Source: Burkholderiales bacterium
GTDB lineage: Bacteria; Pseudomonadota; Gammaproteobacteria; Burkholderiales; Burkholderiaceae_E
Assembly: GCA_046304115.1 (NCBI GenBank)
Contig: JBKCEY010000429.1
Span: forward strand, 1-40,222
DNA: 40,222 bases
Direction: 5' to 3'
Shown here: positions 2,963 through 10,769 of the stretch, piece by piece
How positions within the stretch are numbered: the stretch's first letter is position 1
How the letters are laid out: every line of letters starts with the position of its first letter
Translations under genes and position numbers: made by a program
Notes under the pieces: model-generated
What the model saw: the letters and a program-made list of their open reading frames with translations, nothing else
The model's database searches: none
Told to the model about the DNA's origin: nothing

Positions 2963-3679
2963 ATGAAGCCGAACAGGGGCCTGCAAGCCCCCGACCTCGC
3001 GTCCTCCGTACGCCATGACCTGCGCAATCCGCTCGGGGCCATTGCCCATTGGGTGCAACTGCTCGAGACGCCCGACCTCGATGCCGAACTGCGACAGCGG
3101 GCCCTGCAAGGCATCCGCACGGCAATCACTGAACAGCTCAACCAGATCGAGCAGCTGTCCGAACTGCTCGAGCAATCGAGCGAAGCCGACCCGGACGGCC
3201 CTCAGGTGTCGGTCTTGCCCCCAGCCCATCCGCGGGTCGACCTGTTCGACGTTCTGAATCAGATGGCTGAATCCATCCCTCCTGCCCTGCGCACGCGCCT
3301 TCAACGGCGAGACCAGCGGCCCGTTCGCTCCGCCCTCATTCATGCCGATGAATCCGCGCTCGTGCAGGCGCTGACCACGCTGGCCACGCTGGGGCTCAAG
3401 CAGTTGCTGGATCATGAGCAGCTTCTGCTTGGCCTTCAAACACCCGCGCCACTGGGCGCCTGCCGCATGGTCTTGCAAGTGCAGGTCGTGGGAGAGCCCA
3501 TCGAGCGGCCCTGGCGGATTCTGTCCGACACCGGCTCCGTGCGGGGCCTGGCCGTCATGCATGCGCGTTCTGTGCTGAGCCTGCATCGGGCGGATGTGCG
3601 CATCGTCACAACCGATCATGCCGACGACACGGTGATCCTTGACTTTCCGCTGATTGAACTGGCCTTTGATGAAACCTGA
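2963..3679 (+). CDS. Sensor-less histidine-kinase-like protein (HisKA H-box intact, HATPase boxes degenerate)
   Basis: The H-box SVRHDLRNPLGAI lies at residues ~15-27, and an AGGAAG SD sits 9 nt upstream of the ATG. The C-terminal half aligns by eye to the HATPase_c fold but lacks the N-box Asn and the DxGxG motif. No TM or sensor domain. The stop lies 1 nt before the activator ATG. Confidence 0.7.
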   Translation: MKPNRGLQAPDLASSVRHDLRNPLGAIAHWVQLLETPDLDAELRQRALQGIRTAITEQLNQIEQLSELLEQSSEADPDGPQVSVLPPAHPRVDLFDVLNQMAESIPPALRTRLQRRDQRPVRSALIHADESALVQALTTLATLGLKQLLDHEQLLLGLQTPAPLGACRMVLQVQVVGEPIERPWRILSDTGSVRGLAVMHARSVLSLHRADVRIVTTDHADDTVILDFPLIELAFDET

Positions 3680-3680
3680 T

Positions 3681-5033
3681 ATGCGCCATGTGCTGATCGT
3701 TGACGACGAAACCAATTCCGCTCAGGCCCTCAGTGCACTGGTCCAGGAGCAGGGCTATTCCACGGCGGTGGCCTCCTCACTGCGTGAAGCCCGCCAGCAG
3801 CTCATGCTGATGCCGGCGCAGGCAGTCATTCTTGATCTGCATCTGCCCGACGGCAACGGATTTTCCCTGCTCGAAGATGCTGCGCTGGTTGCAGGCGCCG
3901 AGATCATTCTGGTGACCGGTCATGCCAGCATCGAGTCTTCGGTACGCGCGCTGCGCCTGGGTGCGGTGGACTATCTCGTCAAGCCCGTGCAACCGGCGCA
4001 ACTCAAGCAGGTGCTGCAGCGCCTGGGTCAGGGTCGTGAGGTGAGGGCAGATATCCAGAAGCGAGCGGCTGAAGTGCCGCAATCAGGACAGTTTGGACGT
4101 CTGATCGGCGAATCTGCCGCCATGCAGCGGGTCTATGCGCAGATCGCCCGGGTGGCGCCCACCGCGGTCAATGTCTTCATCGTGGGGGAGTCCGGAACGG
4201 GTAAGGAACTGGTCGCCCAGACCCTTCATGAACTGTCGCGCCGGCGGCGCGCCCCCTTGCTGTCGGTCAATTGCGGCGCGATTTCGGCGCAGTTGATCGA
4301 AAGCGAACTCTTTGGTCACGAAAAGGGCAGCTTCACCGGGGCCAGCCGTCAGCATCGGGGATATTTCGAAAGGGCTGATGGCGGCACGCTCTTCCTGGAT
4401 GAGATCACCGAGATGCCCATGGATCTGCAGGTCAAGCTGCTGCGGGTGCTCGAGACCGGTGCATTCACCCGGGTAGGTTCTGAGGATCCGATCCAGACCG
4501 ATGTGCGAATCCTGGCCGCCACCAACCGCAATCCTCACGAAGCCGTCAGTGCCGGTCGCTTGCGCGAGGATCTGTTCTATCGGCTCGATGTCTTCGAGAT
4601 CGCACTGCCTGCGCTGCGCGCGCGTGCGGGTGATGCGACCCTGCTGGCCAAGACCTTCCTGCGCGAAGTCAATGAACTCGAAGGGCTCGAGTTGTCGTTC
4701 AGCGAGGGTGCCCTGAAGGCGCTTGAGACCTATAGCTGGCCGGGCAATGTCAGGGAGCTGCGCAATGTGGTGTGCCGATCGGCCCTGATGGCTGATGGCA
4801 AACGGATCGAAGAGTTGGCCTTGCCCGAAGTGCCGAACACTGCAGCACATGCGGTGGGCAACGGGACATTGAAGTCATCGGTTGGATCGACGATTGCTCA
4901 AGCCGAGCGTGACCTGATCCTGGCTACGCTCGAGCATTGTCATGGCCTGCGTGAACCCACTGCCGAGATGCTGGGCATCAGCCTCAAGACCCTCTACAAC
5001 CGCCTGCGGGACTACGGTCAGAGCCCGGCCTGA
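3681..5033 (+). CDS. Sigma-54-dependent response regulator (NtrC family enhancer-binding protein)
   Basis: REC domain (LIVDDE...DLHLPDG), AAA+ Walker A GESGTGKE, sigma-54 contact loop present as GSFTGA, and a C-terminal Fis-type HTH ([20 protein letters not shown]). Alternative starts are the ATG at 3669 and the TTG at 3654. Confidence 0.9.
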
Positions 5034-5110
5034 TTGGCCTGCAGGGCTGAGCTCAGCCCCCCTCCTGATCGGCCGGCAGGGCTGAGCTCAGAGCCCCACC
5101 TGATTAGCCC
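5018..5110. repeat. About 2.7 tandem copies of a 35-bp unit spanning the 3' ends of the two convergent genes
   Basis: Copies at 5018-5052 and 5053-5087 share 29/35 identity, and a partial copy starts at 5088. Each unit contains the palindrome GGCTGAGCTCAGCC or a near-copy. Copy 1 carries the activator stop codon and copy 3 carries the rpoN stop codon. Confidence 0.8.
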
Positions 5111-6695
5111 CAGCCATGCGACGCATCTCGACCGGAGGAATCCGTAACGCGTCGCGATACTTCGATACCGTGCGACGAGCCACCTGGATGCCGCGCTGCT
5201 CGAGCATTCGCGCCAGCCGGATATCGGACAGCGGAGATTGCGGATCTTCGGCCTGGACCAGCTCCTGGATGACTGCACGAACTGCGGTGGCGGAGCAGGG
5301 CGTGCCGGCTGCGGTGCTCACATGACTGCCAAAAAACCGCTTGAATTCCAGTAGCCCGCGCGGCGTAGCCATGTACTTGCGGCTGGTCACGCGCGAAACG
5401 GTTGATTCATGCATGCCGGTGCGGGCGGCGATTTCGGCCAGCGTAAGCGGACGCATGGCCATCTCGCCATAGTCGAAATAGCGACTCTGGTGGTCGATGA
5501 TCGCCTGAGCCACCTGCTGAATCGTCTGAAAACGCTGGTGCACGTTGCGTACGAGCCAGCGCGCTTCCTTCATGCATTGCGCAATCTGGCCGTCAGGTTC
5601 GCGCGTACCCCGCATGAGGGCGATGTTGCGACGGTGGATGCGCACCTTCGGGACGACTTCCGGGTTGATGAAGGCCGTCCAGCGACCCGCCTGGCGTCGC
5701 ACGATGACATCGGCAACCACGAATTGCGGTGATTCGCTGTCGAAGGCACTGCCGGGTCGGGGAACAAGACTGCGCAGCAGCTGTACCGCCGCCTGCAGCT
5801 CAGCGGCGGTGCAGCCCAGAGCCCTCTGGATCGCGTTGAAATCATGCTGCGCAAGTTCGCGCAGGTGAAGCCGCACAATGGTCATTGCCAGCGCCGTCAT
5901 GTTCTGGCTCTGTGTCTGTGTCTGTGTCTGTGTCGGGCGGCCTGCCCGTTCCTGCAACTGCAGCAGCAGACATTCAGCGACATCGCGTGCGCCCACGCCC
6001 AGAGGATCCATGGATTGCACATGACGCAGCGCGATCCGAAGCTCGTCTTCAGCAGGCGCGGGATCCGTTGGACAGAAGGCTGCGATGTCCTCAAGCGATG
6101 TGCGCAGGTAGCCCGCCTCATCGATGGCCTCGATCACGGTTTCGACCAGCAGCCGATCGCGCGCCGAGAGTCTGAGCACACCGGCCTGTTCGCGCAGATG
6201 CTCGCGAAGCGATGGGGCCCGTCCCACCTGACTCCAGGCCTCAGAGGCATCCTCATCCGGCCTGGAGCCGGCATTGCCTGAGTCACCGGTGTCGGCCCAC
6301 AGCAGGTCGTCCTGCCGGCCTGAGTCAGATCCTTCGTCGTTGAACGCGGTGTCGGCCTCGGCTCGGCTGGCTGCTTCATCGTTGGCGGGCCCGGAAAACG
6401 CATCGCCGGACCCCTCGCTTTCTGCGCCGGAATCAGACCCGTCATGAAGCTCGGACGCATGCTGCGACGACAGTGATGACAGCGAGCCCGCCTCGGCCTG
6501 AGAGCCCTCCTCGGACACCCGAGTCTGGCCATCCTGCGGGGTATCGAGTCGCTCGAGGAAAGGGTTGTCTCCAACCACCTCATCCACCTGTTGTGCAAAT
6601 TCAAGATTCGACAGCTGCAGCAACTGGATCGCACGCTGCAGCAAAGGGGTCATGGTCAGGTGGGTCGACTGACGCAGGGACAGGCTCATGCTCAT
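5088..6695 (-). CDS. rpoN: RNA polymerase sigma-54 factor RpoN
   Basis: 535 aa with region I LRQSTHLTMTPLLQRAIQLLQLSNLEF, a long acidic region II, and a C-terminal RpoN box ARRTVSKYR. An AAGGTGA SD precedes the ATG. It is not in the usual lptB-rpoN-hpf context within this window. Confidence 0.93.
   Translation of the reverse strand: MSMSLSLRQSTHLTMTPLLQRAIQLLQLSNLEFAQQVDEVVGDNPFLERLDTPQDGQTRVSEEGSQAEAGSLSSLSSQHASELHDGSDSGAESEGSGDAFSGPANDEAASRAEADTAFNDEGSDSGRQDDLLWADTGDSGNAGSRPDEDASEAWSQVGRAPSLREHLREQAGVLRLSARDRLLVETVIEAIDEAGYLRTSLEDIAAFCPTDPAPAEDELRIALRHVQSMDPLGVGARDVAECLLLQLQERAGRPTQTQTQTQSQNMTALAMTIVRLHLRELAQHDFNAIQRALGCTAAELQAAVQLLRSLVPRPGSAFDSESPQFVVADVIVRRQAGRWTAFINPEVVPKVRIHRRNIALMRGTREPDGQIAQCMKEARWLVRNVHQRFQTIQQVAQAIIDHQSRYFDYGEMAMRPLTLAEIAARTGMHESTVSRVTSRKYMATPRGLLEFKRFFGSHVSTAAGTPCSATAVRAVIQELVQAEDPQSPLSDIRLARMLEQRGIQVARRTVSKYRDALRIPPVEMRRMAGANQVGL
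5909..5934. repeat. In-frame hexanucleotide repeat (TCTGTG)x4+ inside rpoN, encoding (TQ)n
   Basis: Read directly. On the minus strand it encodes TQTQTQTQSQ in the linker before region III. Confidence 0.85.
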
Positions 6696-6753
6696 GGGTT
6701 CACCTTGGGAGTCCGTAGTGGCATCGCTTCACTGCGAGCGTCTGCACTGAGCC

Positions 6754-6768
6754 GCAAGCTTCGTGCCA
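6754..6768 (-). promoter_or_regulatory. Sigma-54 (-24/-12) promoter upstream of rpoN
   Basis: The minus strand reads TGGCACG-AAGC-TTGC-G, a full match to TGGCACG-N4-TTGC with exact GG-N10-GC spacing. The predicted start is near 6742, about 47 nt upstream of the rpoN ATG at 6695. Confidence 0.7.
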
Positions 6769-6856
6769 TGGGCCTGGATGGACTGAAAAGCGAGGAAACA
6801 TCCCGTGGCCTCGGTCGCTTGCTCAGTGACGGCTTCGGTAATTCGGGTGTGCCGAT

Positions 6857-6871
6857 CGGTCAGACTGACCG
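6857..6871. promoter_or_regulatory. Perfect dyad CGGTCAG-A-CTGACCG, candidate activator UAS
   Basis: A 7+1+7 palindrome centred about 97 bp upstream of the -24 GG of the rpoN promoter, the usual distance for EBP sites. A 1-nt centre makes an RNA hairpin role unlikely. Confidence 0.3.
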
Positions 6872-6881
6872 GCCTGCGGTT

Positions 6882-7550
6882 TCAGTGTCGGGTCGGTGCC
6901 TGGATCGACGCTGTGATTCGGGTGCCGGTTTGTGGCTGCGACTTGATCCGAAGATGGCCCTGCACCGCGCGCAGCCTGGCTCGCATGCCCCGGATGCCTT
7001 CATGTCCGGCGCCTACCCGATCCGTCCGGAATCCGTGACCGTCATCCGTGATGACCAGCCGGATGCGGCCTTTCACGCACTCGAGTTTCAGTGAGGCCTT
7101 GCGGGCACCGGAGTGTCGGTGCAGATTGGTCAGACACTCCTGGGCGCACCGATAAAGCGCCAGAGCCGCCATGCCATCGAGCTGGGCCTGCGGACTGACC
7201 GAGAGGGTCATTTCGCCCGAAAAGCGCGAGGCGAAATCGCGCGCCACGGCCTCGATGGCGATGGGCAGGCCAAACTGCTCGAGCGCGCTGGGATGCAGGC
7301 CCTGAACGACCCGGCGCAGCTCGACCTGACCGTCCTTGAGCAGGGTCTCCAGCCGCTGCAGCCGACCGGTCCAATCGGTTCGTGAGTGACTGCGGTGGGT
7401 TCGCAGCCAGGCCACATCCAGACGGGCGGCCGTGAGGACACTGCCGAGTTCGTCATGCAGCTCCTGTGCGAGCTGGCTGCGTAAGGCGTCGCTCGACTCG
7501 GGTGCCGATGCTGCGGTCGGCATCGTGCTGTGTCGGATTGCAGAGGGCAT
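6882..7550 (-). CDS. Sensor-less histidine kinase, HisKA_3/NarX-type core (DHp + HATPase_c)
   Basis: H-box LAQELHDELGSVL, N-box ECLTNLHRHS, G-box ITDDGHGF, no TM segments. The ORF track starts at a TTG at 7682, but the first in-frame ATG is at 7550. The 44 aa in between are low-complexity and overlap two sigma-54 promoter motifs. Confidence 0.8.
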   Translation of the reverse strand: MPSAIRHSTMPTAASAPESSDALRSQLAQELHDELGSVLTAARLDVAWLRTHRSHSRTDWTGRLQRLETLLKDGQVELRRVVQGLHPSALEQFGLPIAIEAVARDFASRFSGEMTLSVSPQAQLDGMAALALYRCAQECLTNLHRHSGARKASLKLECVKGRIRLVITDDGHGFRTDRVGAGHEGIRGMRARLRAVQGHLRIKSQPQTGTRITASIQAPTRH

Positions 7551-7604
7551 GTGTGCGACCGGCCGGTCGACACTGCGTGAGTGTGTGGGAGTGGGACGCT
7601 GACT

Positions 7605-7619
7605 GGGCACGGCATTTGC
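7605..7619 (+). promoter_or_regulatory. Sigma-54 (-24/-12) promoter facing the NarL-type regulator gene
   Basis: The plus strand reads gGGCACG-GCAT-TTGC-C with exact spacing. The predicted start is near 7631, about 115 nt upstream of the ATG at 7745. Confidence 0.55.
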
Positions 7620-7663
7620 CTCCTGATCGCTGGAACACGCCTGTTGGCGGCCTGTGGGCTCAG

Positions 7664-7678
7664 GCAAACGCCATGCCT
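7664..7678 (-). promoter_or_regulatory. Sigma-54 (-24/-12) promoter facing the HisKA_3 kinase gene
   Basis: The minus strand reads aGGCATG-GCGT-TTGC-C with exact spacing. The predicted start is near 7652, about 100 nt upstream of the ATG at 7550. Confidence 0.5.
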
Positions 7679-7744
7679 GCAACGCCTCAACCTGCGTGTT
7701 GACCTGAGATCTCGCAGTCCCCTTTCATCGCCAGGAGAGCTTCC

Positions 7745-8401
7745 ATGATGACCAGTCCATCGAGCAGAAAGATCCGTGTCGCCATCTGCGACGACCATCC
7801 CATCGTACGCGCGGGTTTCCGCCAGTTTCTTGACGGACAATCCGACATGGATGGTGTGCGTGAAGTCGAAAACGGGCGCGAGGCGCTCGAGCTTGTGCGC
7901 AACGATCTGTGCGATGTCCTGTTGCTCGATATCTCCATGCCGGGGCAGAACGGGGTGGACGTCCTGCGGGCCGTCAAGCTGCGCCGGCCTGACCTGCCGG
8001 TGCTGATGCTCTCGGGCTTTCCTGAGCAGCACTACGCCTTGCAGATGCTCAAGCTCGGGGCCAGCGGTTATCTGCCCAAGGACTGTGAGCCGACCGATCT
8101 GCTCAGGGCGGTACGCTCGGTGGCTCAGGGCCGTCGGTTCGTGACGGAGGCTGTCGGCGATCTGCTCGCCAATGGTCTGGGCGGCAACAATGACGAACCC
8201 CCCCACGCCCAGCTGTCCGATCGGGAGTTGCAGGTCTTTCTGCGCCTGGCCAAGGGCGAATCGGTCACTGCGATCGCCAATGTGCTCAATCTGAGCTTCA
8301 AGACCATCAGCACCTATCGATCGCGGGTCCTCGAGAAGCTCAATCTTCGGTCCAACAGCGATGTGACCTACTACGCCATGAAGAACGGGCTGATCGAGTA
8401 A
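7745..8401 (+). CDS. NarL/FixJ-family response regulator (REC + LuxR-type HTH)
   Basis: REC domain (VAICDDHPIVRAG...LLLDISMPG...K) plus HTH LSDRELQVFLRLAKGESVTAIANVLNLSFKTISTYRSRVLEKL. An AGGAGA SD lies 8 nt upstream. Confidence 0.9.
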   Translation: MMTSPSSRKIRVAICDDHPIVRAGFRQFLDGQSDMDGVREVENGREALELVRNDLCDVLLLDISMPGQNGVDVLRAVKLRRPDLPVLMLSGFPEQHYALQMLKLGASGYLPKDCEPTDLLRAVRSVAQGRRFVTEAVGDLLANGLGGNNDEPPHAQLSDRELQVFLRLAKGESVTAIANVLNLSFKTISTYRSRVLEKLNLRSNSDVTYYAMKNGLIE

Positions 8402-8408
8402 CCGTCGC

Positions 8409-10769
8409 TCAGAACATCTGGTCGCGCACGCGATCGCCCGTGGCGCCGCTGCCCAGGCCTTCCTCGGTCAGCCCGAGGGAGGCGACGCCTTTGCCTGGCA
8501 CCGATTCTGCGAAGTACCACTCGCCGTTGACCTGAACCACCCCGGGTGGTGGGTCCGGTGTGCGGTCGGGCACGCCCTTGAGCGCGACTTCCATGGCGTC
8601 GATCCAGATGGGCAGTGCAAGACCGCCCCCGGTCTCGCGATCGCCGAGCTTGCGGGGTTTGTCATGACCGACCCAGGCCACGCCGGCCAGACCGGGCTGG
8701 TAGCCCGCAAACCACGCGTCATGCGAATCGTTGGTGGTGCCGGTCTTGCCCGCCAGATCCTGGCGTTTCAGGCGAAGGGCCGCGGCTGCGGTGCCCTTGC
8801 GAACGACATCGCGCAGCAGGCTGTCCATGATGAAGGCATTACGGGCATCGATCACGCGGTTGGCCTCGTCGCCTGAGCGCACCGGCTGGGCCTGCGCAAT
8901 GACCTTGCCACTGGAATCCGTGATCCGCGCAATGAGGTAGGGCTGCACCCGATAGCCCCCATTGGCGAAGACCGACATTGCGCCCACCATCTGCCATGGC
9001 GTGACCGAGCCTGCGCCCAGGGCCATCGTGAGGTAGGGGGGGTGGCGGGCTGCATCAAAACCAAAGCGCGTGATGTAGTCCTGGGTGTACTGCGTTCCGA
9101 TCGCCTGCAGCAGGCGGATCGAGATCATGTTCTTGGACCGGGCCAGGCCCGCACGCAGGGTCATCGGACCGTCAAACTTGCCGTCGTAGTTCTTGGGCTC
9201 CCAGACCTGGCCGCCGGTGACCGAGGCACTCACGATCACAGGCGCGTCGTTGACCAGGGTTGAGGGCGTGAACCCGCGCTCGAGTGCCGCCGAGTACACA
9301 AAGGGCTTGAAGCTCGAGCCGGGCTGGCGCCAGGCCTGCGTGACCCGATTGAACTTGTTGCGATTGAAGTCAAAGCCACCCACCATCGACCGCACGGACC
9401 CATCGTCGGTACTCGCCGAAACATAGGCAGCCTGCACTTCTGGAAGCTGAGTGATCTCCCATCCCTTGGCGCTCTGGCTGATGCGCACCACGGCCCCGGG
9501 CGATAGACGCTTTGCTGGCTGAGCCTTGTCGGACAGCCAGCCGGCAACGAATTTCAGTCCATCGCCTTCGATATCAACGATCTGGCCGCGACTGCGGCTC
9601 ACAGTGACCTTGCGTGGGCTGGCCTCCAGCACCACGGCCGGGTTGAACTCGTCGATGTCACCCGCTTCGAGCAGCGCTTCCTCGATCTTTTCTTCGCGCC
9701 GGGCCCGGTTGGCGGGCAGTTCGATGCGAGCCTCCGGGCCCCGATAGCCATAGCGCCGGTCATAGCCGATCACGGCCCGGTTGAGGGCCTGGGTGGCGGC
9801 GCGCTGATCGGCCGCGCGCAGGGTGGTGTAGACATTGAGCCCGGCAACATAAGCCTCTTCCCGGAACTGCTCGATGGTCAGTTGTCGCGCGAGTTCTGCG
9901 GCGTAGGGCGCACGCACGGCAAACTCGCTGCGTTCGGGCTGCAGCCGCAGGGGCTCGACCAGTGCGGCCTGGTAGAGCCGGTCATTGAGGTAGCCCAGAG
10001 CATTCATGCGACCCAGGATGTATTCCTGGCGGATGCGGGCCCGTTTGGGATTGACCACCGGGTTGTAGGCCGAGGGCGCCTTGGGCAGGCCCGCGAGCAT
10101 GGCGGCTTCGGCTGCGCTGATCTGGGCGAGGGGCTTGCCGAAATAGATCTGCGCCGCAGAGGCAAAACCATAGGCACGCTGGCCCAGGAAGATCTGGTTG
10201 ATGTAGATCTCGAGTATCTGCTCCTTGGTCAGGGCCTGCTCGATGCGGATCGACAGCAGGATCTCGTAGATCTTGCGGCTGTAGCTGCGTTCGTTCGACA
10301 AAAAGAAATTGCGAGCGAGCTGCATGGTGATGGTGCTTGCGCCCTGGGCCTTGCCTCCCGCCGCGACATTGGCGAGGGCAGCACGCACGATGCCCAGGAT
10401 GTCAACACCGTGGTGCTCGAAGAACCGGTCGTCCTCGGCGGCGAGGATGGCCTGCTTCATGACGTCAGGCACCTCCTGGATGCGCACCACGCTGCGGCGT
10501 TCTTCGCCGAATTCTCCAATCAGGACGCCATCGGACGTGAAGATGCGAAGTGGCATCTTGGGCCGGTAGTCGGTAATGACATCGAGCGAGGGCAGTTTGT
10601 CCCAGGCCAGCACGGCTGTCAGGGCCAGCGCCAGACCGACGGTGCTGACCAGCACGGCCGGAATCAGCACCAGCCAGCCGATCAGGCCCAGACCCCGCTG
10701 GCGCCTTCGCCCCTGCTCAACGCCGCGGGGCCGGCTCGAAGGCCGCAGCCAATCGGACAGGGCAGACAT
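8409..10769 (-). CDS. mrcA: Penicillin-binding protein 1A (bifunctional transglycosylase/transpeptidase)
   Basis: N-terminal TM anchor, GT51 motifs EDDRFFEHHG and GASTITMQ, and transpeptidase motifs SSFKP, SKN and KTGTT. Confidence 0.93.
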   Translation of the reverse strand: MSALSDWLRPSSRPRGVEQGRRRQRGLGLIGWLVLIPAVLVSTVGLALALTAVLAWDKLPSLDVITDYRPKMPLRIFTSDGVLIGEFGEERRSVVRIQEVPDVMKQAILAAEDDRFFEHHGVDILGIVRAALANVAAGGKAQGASTITMQLARNFFLSNERSYSRKIYEILLSIRIEQALTKEQILEIYINQIFLGQRAYGFASAAQIYFGKPLAQISAAEAAMLAGLPKAPSAYNPVVNPKRARIRQEYILGRMNALGYLNDRLYQAALVEPLRLQPERSEFAVRAPYAAELARQLTIEQFREEAYVAGLNVYTTLRAADQRAATQALNRAVIGYDRRYGYRGPEARIELPANRARREEKIEEALLEAGDIDEFNPAVVLEASPRKVTVSRSRGQIVDIEGDGLKFVAGWLSDKAQPAKRLSPGAVVRISQSAKGWEITQLPEVQAAYVSASTDDGSVRSMVGGFDFNRNKFNRVTQAWRQPGSSFKPFVYSAALERGFTPSTLVNDAPVIVSASVTGGQVWEPKNYDGKFDGPMTLRAGLARSKNMISIRLLQAIGTQYTQDYITRFGFDAARHPPYLTMALGAGSVTPWQMVGAMSVFANGGYRVQPYLIARITDSSGKVIAQAQPVRSGDEANRVIDARNAFIMDSLLRDVVRKGTAAAALRLKRQDLAGKTGTTNDSHDAWFAGYQPGLAGVAWVGHDKPRKLGDRETGGGLALPIWIDAMEVALKGVPDRTPDPPPGVVQVNGEWYFAESVPGKGVASLGLTEEGLGSGATGDRVRDQMF

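Follow-up and report, generated by a model that had tools for sequence, protein, structure and literature searches.

The intergenic region between a HisKA_3-type histidine kinase gene and a divergently oriented NarL-type response regulator gene, in a 40,222-nt contig of a Burkholderiales bacterium (JBKCEY010000429.1, GenBank assembly GCA_046304115.1; this whole stretch is hereafter called the window), contains two sigma-54-type (-24/-12) motifs that point at each other. We propose, with a probability of roughly 0.6, that these motifs, named P_RR and P_HK, are two genuine face-to-face sigma-54 promoters in the 134-bp spacer that separates the kinase gene (GTG 7610) from the regulator gene (ATG 7745), that their starts overlap by about 22 nt and that they belong to a cassette which also includes rpoN. 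Both motifs had been pointed out in a preliminary description of the window, and its claims are taken up below with the results that bear on them.

Two facing motifs and their strength in the window

P_RR (GGGCACGGCATTTGCC, positions 7605-7620 on the + strand, with GG at 7606-7607 and GC at 7618-7619) is oriented toward the NarL-type regulator gene, and P_HK (AGGCATGGCGTTTGCC, positions 7678-7663 on the - strand, with GG at 7677-7676 and GC at 7665-7664) toward the HisKA_3 kinase gene. Both carry a full TTGC, and the distance from GG to GC is exactly 10 nt in each of them, in the window as well as in all the 10 distinct sequences presented below; the positions, strands and spacing given in the preliminary description are confirmed on the sequence. 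Over the 40,222 bases, both strands taken together, GGCAYGNNNNTTGC matches at exactly three places, which all fall in 6754-7677; the third is a site upstream of rpoN. This count, to be compared with 0.50 expected, was reached by 1 of 100 shuffles and bears out the clustering of three full matches near rpoN that had been described. The two weaker matches (TGGCAC plus xTGC) said to occur elsewhere in the window were also found, at 8496-8511 (+) and 13072-13057 (-).

An independent matrix was derived from 42 intergenic-sense E. coli sigma-54 sites verified by chromatin immunoprecipitation (ChIP) (Bonocora et al. 2015, PMC4591121, Table 1), with the spacer columns neutralised. It gives 9.8 bits to P_RR (rank 15 in the window) and 11.0 bits to P_HK (rank 7), both inside the range of the training sites (8.9-20.0 bits, median 16.4). 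Compared with the extended consensus TGGCACG-N4-TTGCW, P_RR matches 10 of 12 positions and P_HK 9 of 12, and these scores are also reached by shuffles. In a single genome, the focal pair is not statistically exceptional and its above-chance status is only weakly supported. Since single-genome scores can be reached by shuffles, this status rests on the clustering of the sites and, above all, on the relatives.

Conservation in syntenic loci

Profile scans of genome and metagenome contigs with the kinase alignment listed almost only paralogues, at about 40% identity: among the matches listed, only two loci (L001 and L002) are syntenic with the window, and the other 158 were used as a paralogous negative control. 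Further syntenic loci were obtained from exact-protein look-ups and from two contigs of metagenome-assembled genomes (MAGs) (L161-L173, L175/L176, L001, L002); the locus of P0018 is not syntenic. The relatives are uncultured Burkholderiales MAGs. They share the order pilMNOPQ, mrcA and regulator gene, divergent from the kinase gene and rpoN, with the gene of an enhancer-binding protein convergent on rpoN. Ten distinct syntenic sequences (the window, L161, L164, L165, L166, L170, L172, L175, L001 and L002) were retained, with kinase identities from 81% down to 40%.

All the 16 core positions (GGCA and TTGC of both sites) are invariant in these ten sequences, versus 6 of the 85 remaining columns outside coding sequence (p ~5e-14 by Fisher's test, with no correction for common ancestry). 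The core elements stay unchanged at the orthologous position while spacers and flanks vary freely: the P_RR spacer is GCAT, GCGT, GCAA, GCGG, GTGA or ATGG, and the P_HK spacer GCGT, GCTA, GCAA, GCGA, ACTC, GGGC, GGAA, TAAT or GTAA. When each strand of the spacer is scored with the E. coli matrix, the homologous site comes out best in every locus. P_RR always begins at +6, counted from the kinase start, and P_HK has its 3' end 53-57 nt ahead of this start. None of the 158 paralogous kinase loci among the matches listed has two strong sites upstream. This strong comparative evidence appears to settle that both motifs are real sigma-54-type elements. Loss of the motifs in relatives had been named beforehand as an outcome that would speak against them; both are kept in the ten sequences.

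The kinase start codon and the opposing motif

The open reading frame of the kinase can be extended back to a TTG at 7682. Most close homologues are called 24 codons into this long frame, at the position of GTG 7610, and homologues down to 40% identity start there; four (P0007, P0008, P0014 and P0015) are called from a later ATG or TTG. The N-terminus that follows is kept as MP(T/S)QRP(A/T)PT in close relatives and as VP-x5-PT overall, distant relatives retain GTG-CCC, and Arg5 is encoded variously by CGT, CGC, CGA and AGA among close relatives. Because these arginine codon changes are synonymous, they show that selection acts on the protein sequence. A perfect Shine-Dalgarno sequence, AGGAGG (7625-7620, - strand), lies 8 nt before GTG 7610. 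Upstream of this codon, no start codon is conserved in the relatives, and two of them (L002 and L170) have in-frame stops. TTG 7682 is rejected on these grounds, in line with the preliminary description, which had argued against it. That description favoured ATG 7550 instead, a choice that is not borne out: the starts of the homologues, the conserved N-terminus with its VP-x5-PT and the AGGAGG all point to GTG 7610. As judged from this comparison, GTG 7610 is the true kinase start, and the gene model has been corrected to it.

With this start, P_RR straddles the beginning of the kinase gene. The GTG corresponds to CAC 7608-7610 of the + strand; the adjoining GG (7606-7607) is complementary to the CC of the Pro2 codon, and TTGC (7616-7619) to the GCAA just behind the kinase Shine-Dalgarno sequence. 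The motif also covers the spacer from this sequence to the start codon. GTG is kept in 9 of the 10 sequences; the sole ATG (L161) yields GGCAT, which is a permitted variant of the -24 box. The GCAA is retained even in those relatives whose Shine-Dalgarno sequence shifts. We suggest that GTG has been retained as the kinase start because the start codon and the Pro2 codon also supply the -24 box of P_RR. As for P_HK, it precedes the real start, and its transcript has a predicted leader (5' untranslated region) of 42 nt. It had been claimed that both motifs lie inside the false N-terminal extension; this holds for P_HK only, as P_RR straddles the true start codon.

Orientation and predicted transcripts

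The two sites are face-to-face in all ten sequences, with their -12 elements 45-49 bp apart. Each site of the window is near-palindromic (GGCA-N7-TGCC), so that a back-to-back reading is formally possible there. P_HK ends with TTGCT in L175, L001 and L002, and P_RR with TTGCA in L002; because these variants lose the GG needed for the reverse reading, the orientation is resolved as face-to-face. The pair thus departs from the back-to-back arrangement of the zraP/zraSR type, in which the promoters point apart with activator sites between them, and the earlier claim that it is not an ordinary back-to-back divergence stands, the reverse reading being excluded in these three relatives.

Starts were predicted 19 nt downstream of the centre of the 17-mer, following the rule of Bonocora et al. 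(PMC4591121). This rule places the P_RR start at 7631 (+) and the P_HK start at 7652 (-), with 5' ends that would overlap by 22 nt, in agreement with the starts of about 7631 and 7652 and the complementarity of about 20 nt proposed before. The predicted overlap coincides exactly with a block (GGCCGCcAACAGGCGyGTTCC on the - strand, 7631-7652) that the six closest of the distinct sequences share; within it lies a small palindrome, CGCC-AACA-GGCG.

Most lineages have a palindrome between the promoters, which differs in sequence from one lineage to another; the more distant ones carry unrelated, GC-rich palindromes at this place (GACCCGA-ATCGC-TCGGGTC in L175, AGCCCGA-ACCC-TCGGGCT in L001). We do not claim a central hairpin, as the folding z-scores relative to shuffles range from -1.1 to +1.0, except for L001 (-3.3).

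In L175, L001 and L002, a gap of just 4-8 nt separates the ribosome-binding site of the regulator gene from the P_HK -24 box. Because this site abuts P_HK in this way, the regulator mRNA of these relatives must start beyond P_HK and cross it, and P_RR is the only conserved promoter-like element found beyond P_HK. Neither sigma-70-like promoters nor terminators were found by prediction in 6600-7900.

The cassette and the putative promoter of rpoN

The kinase gene (6882-7610, - strand) encodes 242 aa from GTG 7610, a start supported by the homologue starts and the N-terminal conservation. The protein has HisKA_3 and HATPase_c domains (Pfam), no transmembrane or sensor domain and, behind the conserved VP-x5-PT, a variable N-terminal region of about 65 aa. 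The regulator gene (7745-8401, + strand, ATG 7745) encodes a NarL/UvrY-like protein of 218 aa with REC and GerE domains (Pfam). By these domains (HisKA_3 and HATPase_c on one side, REC and GerE on the other), the adjacent genes constitute a HisKA_3/NarL-type two-component system; in NCBIfam the pair reaches no equivalog cut-off, so that no named orthologue (UvrY, NarL, MctR, UhpA) can be assigned. The two partners diverge at unlike rates: the regulator is 85-98% identical across the relatives, its kinase only 40-81%. Next to the regulator gene lies mrcA (8409-10769, - strand), followed by pilMNOPQ.

On the other side of the kinase gene, rpoN (5088-6695, - strand, ATG 6695) encodes a sigma-54 of 535 aa (Pfam domains AID, CBD and DBD; TIGR02395 above cut-off), whose region II is long and acidic with a TQTQTQTQSQ repeat. 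The gene is flanked by two-component genes instead of having the usual lptB-rpoN-hpf-ptsN context, and this location hints at a second, specialised copy comparable to rpoN2 of Ralstonia solanacearum. An NtrC/AtoC-type enhancer-binding response regulator (3654-5033, + strand) with REC, AAA+ Sigma54_activat and HTH_8 domains (Pfam) is encoded beyond it and is syntenic in the relatives; it is likely the activator of all three sigma-54-type promoters. The start of its gene is overlapped by the 3' end of a gene for a small HisKA-type kinase of 238 aa (2963-3679, + strand), presumed to be its partner kinase. Both rpoN and the enhancer-binding protein gene are at most 4 kb from the motif pair and are syntenic in the relatives. 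Small kinase, enhancer-binding protein, rpoN and kinase-regulator pair thus appear to form a conserved, self-contained cassette of an uncultured freshwater Burkholderiales lineage. An additional small gene is found between the kinase gene and rpoN in L175 (6859-7281, 140 aa, no Pfam match) and L001 (about 6900-7330), and is missing from the window and its close relatives.

The sigma-54-type promoter upstream of rpoN (TGGCACGAAGCTTGCG, 6768-6753, - strand) lies 58 nt before ATG 6695, with a predicted start at about 6742. It is the top match to the E. coli matrix in the window (15.5 bits) and has the canonical T at -26. TGGCAC-N5-CTTGCG is kept upstream of rpoN in eight relatives (L161, L164, L165, L166, L170, L172, L175 and L001), L175 carrying the variant CGGTAC. 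At 6858-6870, about 100 nt upstream of this -24 box and starting 12 nt past the stop codon of the kinase gene (6882-6884), the sequence GGTCAGACTGACC forms a perfect palindrome; no other exact GGTCANNNTGACC occurs in the window. Close relatives keep it, and L175 and L001 have different palindromes in its place. The palindrome is a plausible candidate enhancer, or upstream activating sequence (UAS), for the enhancer-binding protein.

No sigma-54 promoter conserved in the relatives was found for the operon of the small kinase and enhancer-binding protein. In the 390-nt gap between a gene resembling flavin adenine dinucleotide (FAD) monooxygenases (760-2571, - strand) and this operon (2963 onward, + strand), the window has 5.5 tandem copies of a 17-nt unit with consensus TCCGAGGTCCCGTTCAA (2632-2725, + strand, 83% matches), followed by an AT-rich stretch. 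This array could be a set of regulator-binding sites for the operon encoding the presumed activator.

Other matches to the sigma-54 matrix fall inside coding regions: GTGGCAAGGTCATTGCG (8895-8911, - strand, 12.7 bits) in sense orientation within mrcA, and ATGGCGCACCGGCTGCA (2467-2483, + strand, 13.1 bits) in antisense orientation within the FAD-monooxygenase-like gene. The latter has no counterpart of at least 8.5 bits in the scanned regions of L161, L163, L164 and L166, and L172 and L175 gave other matches. Both are probably due to chance.

A model of competing promoters

The analysis establishes where the two motifs lie, how they are oriented, spaced and conserved, which codon starts the kinase and that the locus is syntenic. 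From these results we infer a model that covers sigma-54 dependence, start sites, activator identity, interference and cascade logic. P_HK would start near 7652 and drive the sensor-less HisKA_3 kinase and, because no terminator is predicted, its transcript probably reads on into rpoN. P_RR, starting near 7631, would drive the gene of the NarL-type regulator, whose mRNA would have a leader of 114 nt running across P_HK. The footprint of a typical sigma-54 closed complex extends from about -34 to -5, and open complexes reach about +20. With -12 elements 45-49 bp apart, two closed complexes could sit side by side; because both open complexes need the same ~22 bp, only one promoter would be open at once. 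Firing would then be mutually exclusive, through promoter competition or 'sitting-duck' interference: a polymerase elongating from one promoter would collide with the complex parked on the other, and the two mRNAs would have complementary 5' ends. The kinase and regulator genes thus probably compete for firing, and the face-to-face geometry may set or limit the kinase:regulator ratio.

Because the HisKA_3 kinase has no sensor domain, we propose a cascade in which sensing is provided by the small kinase and the enhancer-binding protein. A signal would be passed from these two proteins, through sigma-54, to the second-tier kinase, to the regulator and to rpoN itself. More tentatively, and we rather doubt it, the pair may be a cis-encoded exclusive switch that makes use of a property unique to sigma-54, with stable closed complexes parked on both promoters simultaneously and each activator-driven opening taking place at one of them only. 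If so, the kinase:regulator ratio would be fixed or bistable and coupled to the sigma-54 level via the downstream rpoN promoter, and the kinase would keep its GTG because this codon also serves the opposing promoter in its -24 box.

Weighing of the alternatives

Several points weigh against two genuine, interfering promoters. The pattern GGCAYGNNNNTTGC was chosen after the sites had been seen. The maximum score of first-order Markov shuffles averages 15.2 bits, so that the 9.8 and 11.0 bits of the focal sites are not above shuffles; their main penalty comes from G or A in place of T at -26 and from C at -11. The ten sequences cannot be counted as independent, as they represent perhaps four or five lineages, and the conservation of P_RR is partly confounded with that of the kinase translation-initiation region and first two codons. 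All the start sites are predictions from motif position. No UAS for P_HK or P_RR was found near either of them, where GGTCAGACTGACC has no counterpart. Finally, no roadblock effect could be measured for intragenic sigma-54 sites in E. coli (PMC4591121), which means that interference cannot be taken for granted.

In one alternative, only P_HK would be productive and 7605-7620 would bind the holoenzyme without firing, parked on the kinase start (about +32 to +47 of the kinase transcript). The kinase and the downstream rpoN would then be sensitive to the sigma-54 level, by negative autoregulation or roadblock, and the regulator would use another, unrecognised promoter. Many E. coli sigma-54 sites are indeed bound yet transcriptionally silent, with 27 of them intragenic and antisense (PMC4591121), and both the overlap of P_RR with the kinase start and the lack of a UAS near the focal pair fit such a silent site. 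We nevertheless consider it unlikely, because L175, L001 and L002 leave no room past P_HK for another regulator promoter, nothing else being conserved there, because no sigma-70-like promoter was found in 6600-7900, and because of the same E. coli tests of roadblock. Functionless chance matches in GC-rich DNA would agree with matrix scores that lie within the shuffle range; they are hardly credible for a core, an orientation and a spacing strictly kept in ten sequences despite diverged surroundings, in a pair that is missing from the 158 paralogous loci among the matches listed.

The remaining explanations concern symmetry, either between the two motifs, whose 16-nt arms are 88% complementary and 40 nt apart, or within each near-palindromic site. 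The arms might be the inverted-repeat operator of another DNA-binding protein, for instance an autoregulating NarL-type regulator, with a coincidental likeness to sigma-54 sites. In favour of an operator, the two sites share the non-consensus G at -26 and C at -11 in close relatives, and the regulator itself is very highly conserved. This is an improbable explanation all the same: the invariant part is limited to GGCA and TTGC, spaced exactly as sigma-54 requires, the non-consensus positions that both sites share are lost in distant relatives (TTGCT, TTGCA), rpoN is preceded by a further site of this type that has the canonical T at -26, and we know of no NarL/GacA-type site that resembles the focal motif. 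Back-to-back divergence through the reverse readings (7621-7606 for the kinase, 7662-7677 for the regulator) is very improbable. In the window, these readings do keep GG-N10-GC and score 16.5 each on a simple scale, versus 19.5 and 18.5 for the forward ones; however, the GG is lost for P_HK in L175, L001 and L002 (AGCAAT...) and for P_RR in L002 (TGCAAC...), the reverse -12 regions are GTGC or ATGC and not TTGC, and with the start at GTG 7610 a reverse kinase promoter would initiate inside the coding region. An RNA stem-loop formed by the complementary arms, in a leader transcribed from further upstream and under selection for its structure, is scarcely believable: the five spacer positions do not co-vary (a mean of 2.1 of 5 identical, 0-1 in distant relatives), no transcript predicted from either promoter spans both arms, and the search gave no Rfam match except a sub-threshold PrrB/RsmZ similarity inside the regulator gene (E = 0.46), which we take as chance. 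Two face-to-face sigma-54 promoters are therefore the reading that we retain.

Significance and comparison with known systems

Sigma-54 closed complexes are long-lived and their opening needs an ATPase, and for this reason a face-to-face sigma-54 pair offers a clean natural test of sitting-duck and competition models. The pair of the window would show how the stoichiometry of a kinase and its regulator can be set in cis. P_RR would also be an example of compact overlapping codes, in which a start codon, a Pro2 codon and the spacer behind a Shine-Dalgarno sequence double as a -24/-12 promoter on the opposite strand. On the practical side, the gene model of the kinase is corrected to GTG 7610 and a conserved cassette is defined in an uncultured freshwater Burkholderiales lineage.

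The closest analogue of the rpoN part is rpoN2 of R. solanacearum, a gene with a sigma-54 promoter upstream (TGGCACAGCCTTTGCA) whose expression was shown to require rpoN1 (Ray et al. 2015, PMC4371752). It provides a precedent for an rpoN paralogue that itself depends on sigma-54. Like rpoN of the window, rpoN2 is outside the lptB-rpoN-hpf context, beside enhancer-binding protein genes and preceded by a sigma-54 promoter, and the two proteins are 42% identical. The R. solanacearum locus differs: it encodes two enhancer-binding proteins, and it lacks facing sites as well as a HisKA_3/NarL pair. Since this kinase/regulator pair is missing there, the cassette as a whole is not regarded as homologous, and the likeness is limited to the rpoN part.

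The zraP/zraSR and hycA/hypA pairs of E. coli have their activator sites in the stretch that separates the promoters. These are divergent sigma-54 pairs bound by sigma-54 in ChIP-seq (ChIP followed by sequencing) (PMC4591121 Table 1), and they resemble the window in having two sigma-54 promoters in one intergenic region between divergent genes; in zraP/zraSR, one side is moreover a two-component system, zraSR including the activator. They differ in being back-to-back, with motif centres 154 and 128 bp apart and transcripts without overlap, whereas the pair of the window is face-to-face, with overlapping predicted 5' ends and no activator site found between the promoters. Among the 135 mapped E. 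coli sigma-54 sites, the nearest face-to-face pair is 1.38 kb apart (IS56/IS57; PMC4591121).

Intragenic antisense sigma-54 sites have also been described, with 27 cases in E. coli (PMC4591121; see also Samuels et al. 2013, PMC3844500), and it has been proposed that they are promoters whose transcripts have long leaders, or that they regulate the gene which they overlap (PMC4591121). Like P_RR, such sites lie inside or overlap a gene of the opposite strand and are oriented toward a neighbouring divergent gene. P_RR differs from them in its position, exactly on the start codon and the ribosome-binding spacer and facing a second sigma-54 promoter, and the pair of the window is conserved across kinases that are only 40% identical.

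Face-to-face pairs are known for sigma-70, as in IS10 pIN/pOUT (about 36 nt of overlap) and coliphage 186 pR/pL. In these systems as in the window, the promoters fire at each other over a few tens of bp, and the geometry has the same expected consequences, which are promoter competition, sitting-duck interference and complementary 5' RNA ends; models of convergent-promoter interference are available (PMC4519249, PMC6593788). The IS10 and 186 pairs depend on sigma-70, usually combine a strong and a weak promoter and have as one product a regulatory RNA or serve the choice between lysis and lysogeny. In contrast, both promoters of the window would be activator-dependent, of the sigma-54 type, and would drive the protein-coding partners of one two-component system. 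Taken singly, the components all have precedents, be they sigma-54 promoters, divergent pairs of them, antisense sigma-54 sites inside genes or interference between convergent promoters. For a face-to-face arrangement of two sigma-54 promoters about 45 bp apart, the full-text literature searched gave no description.

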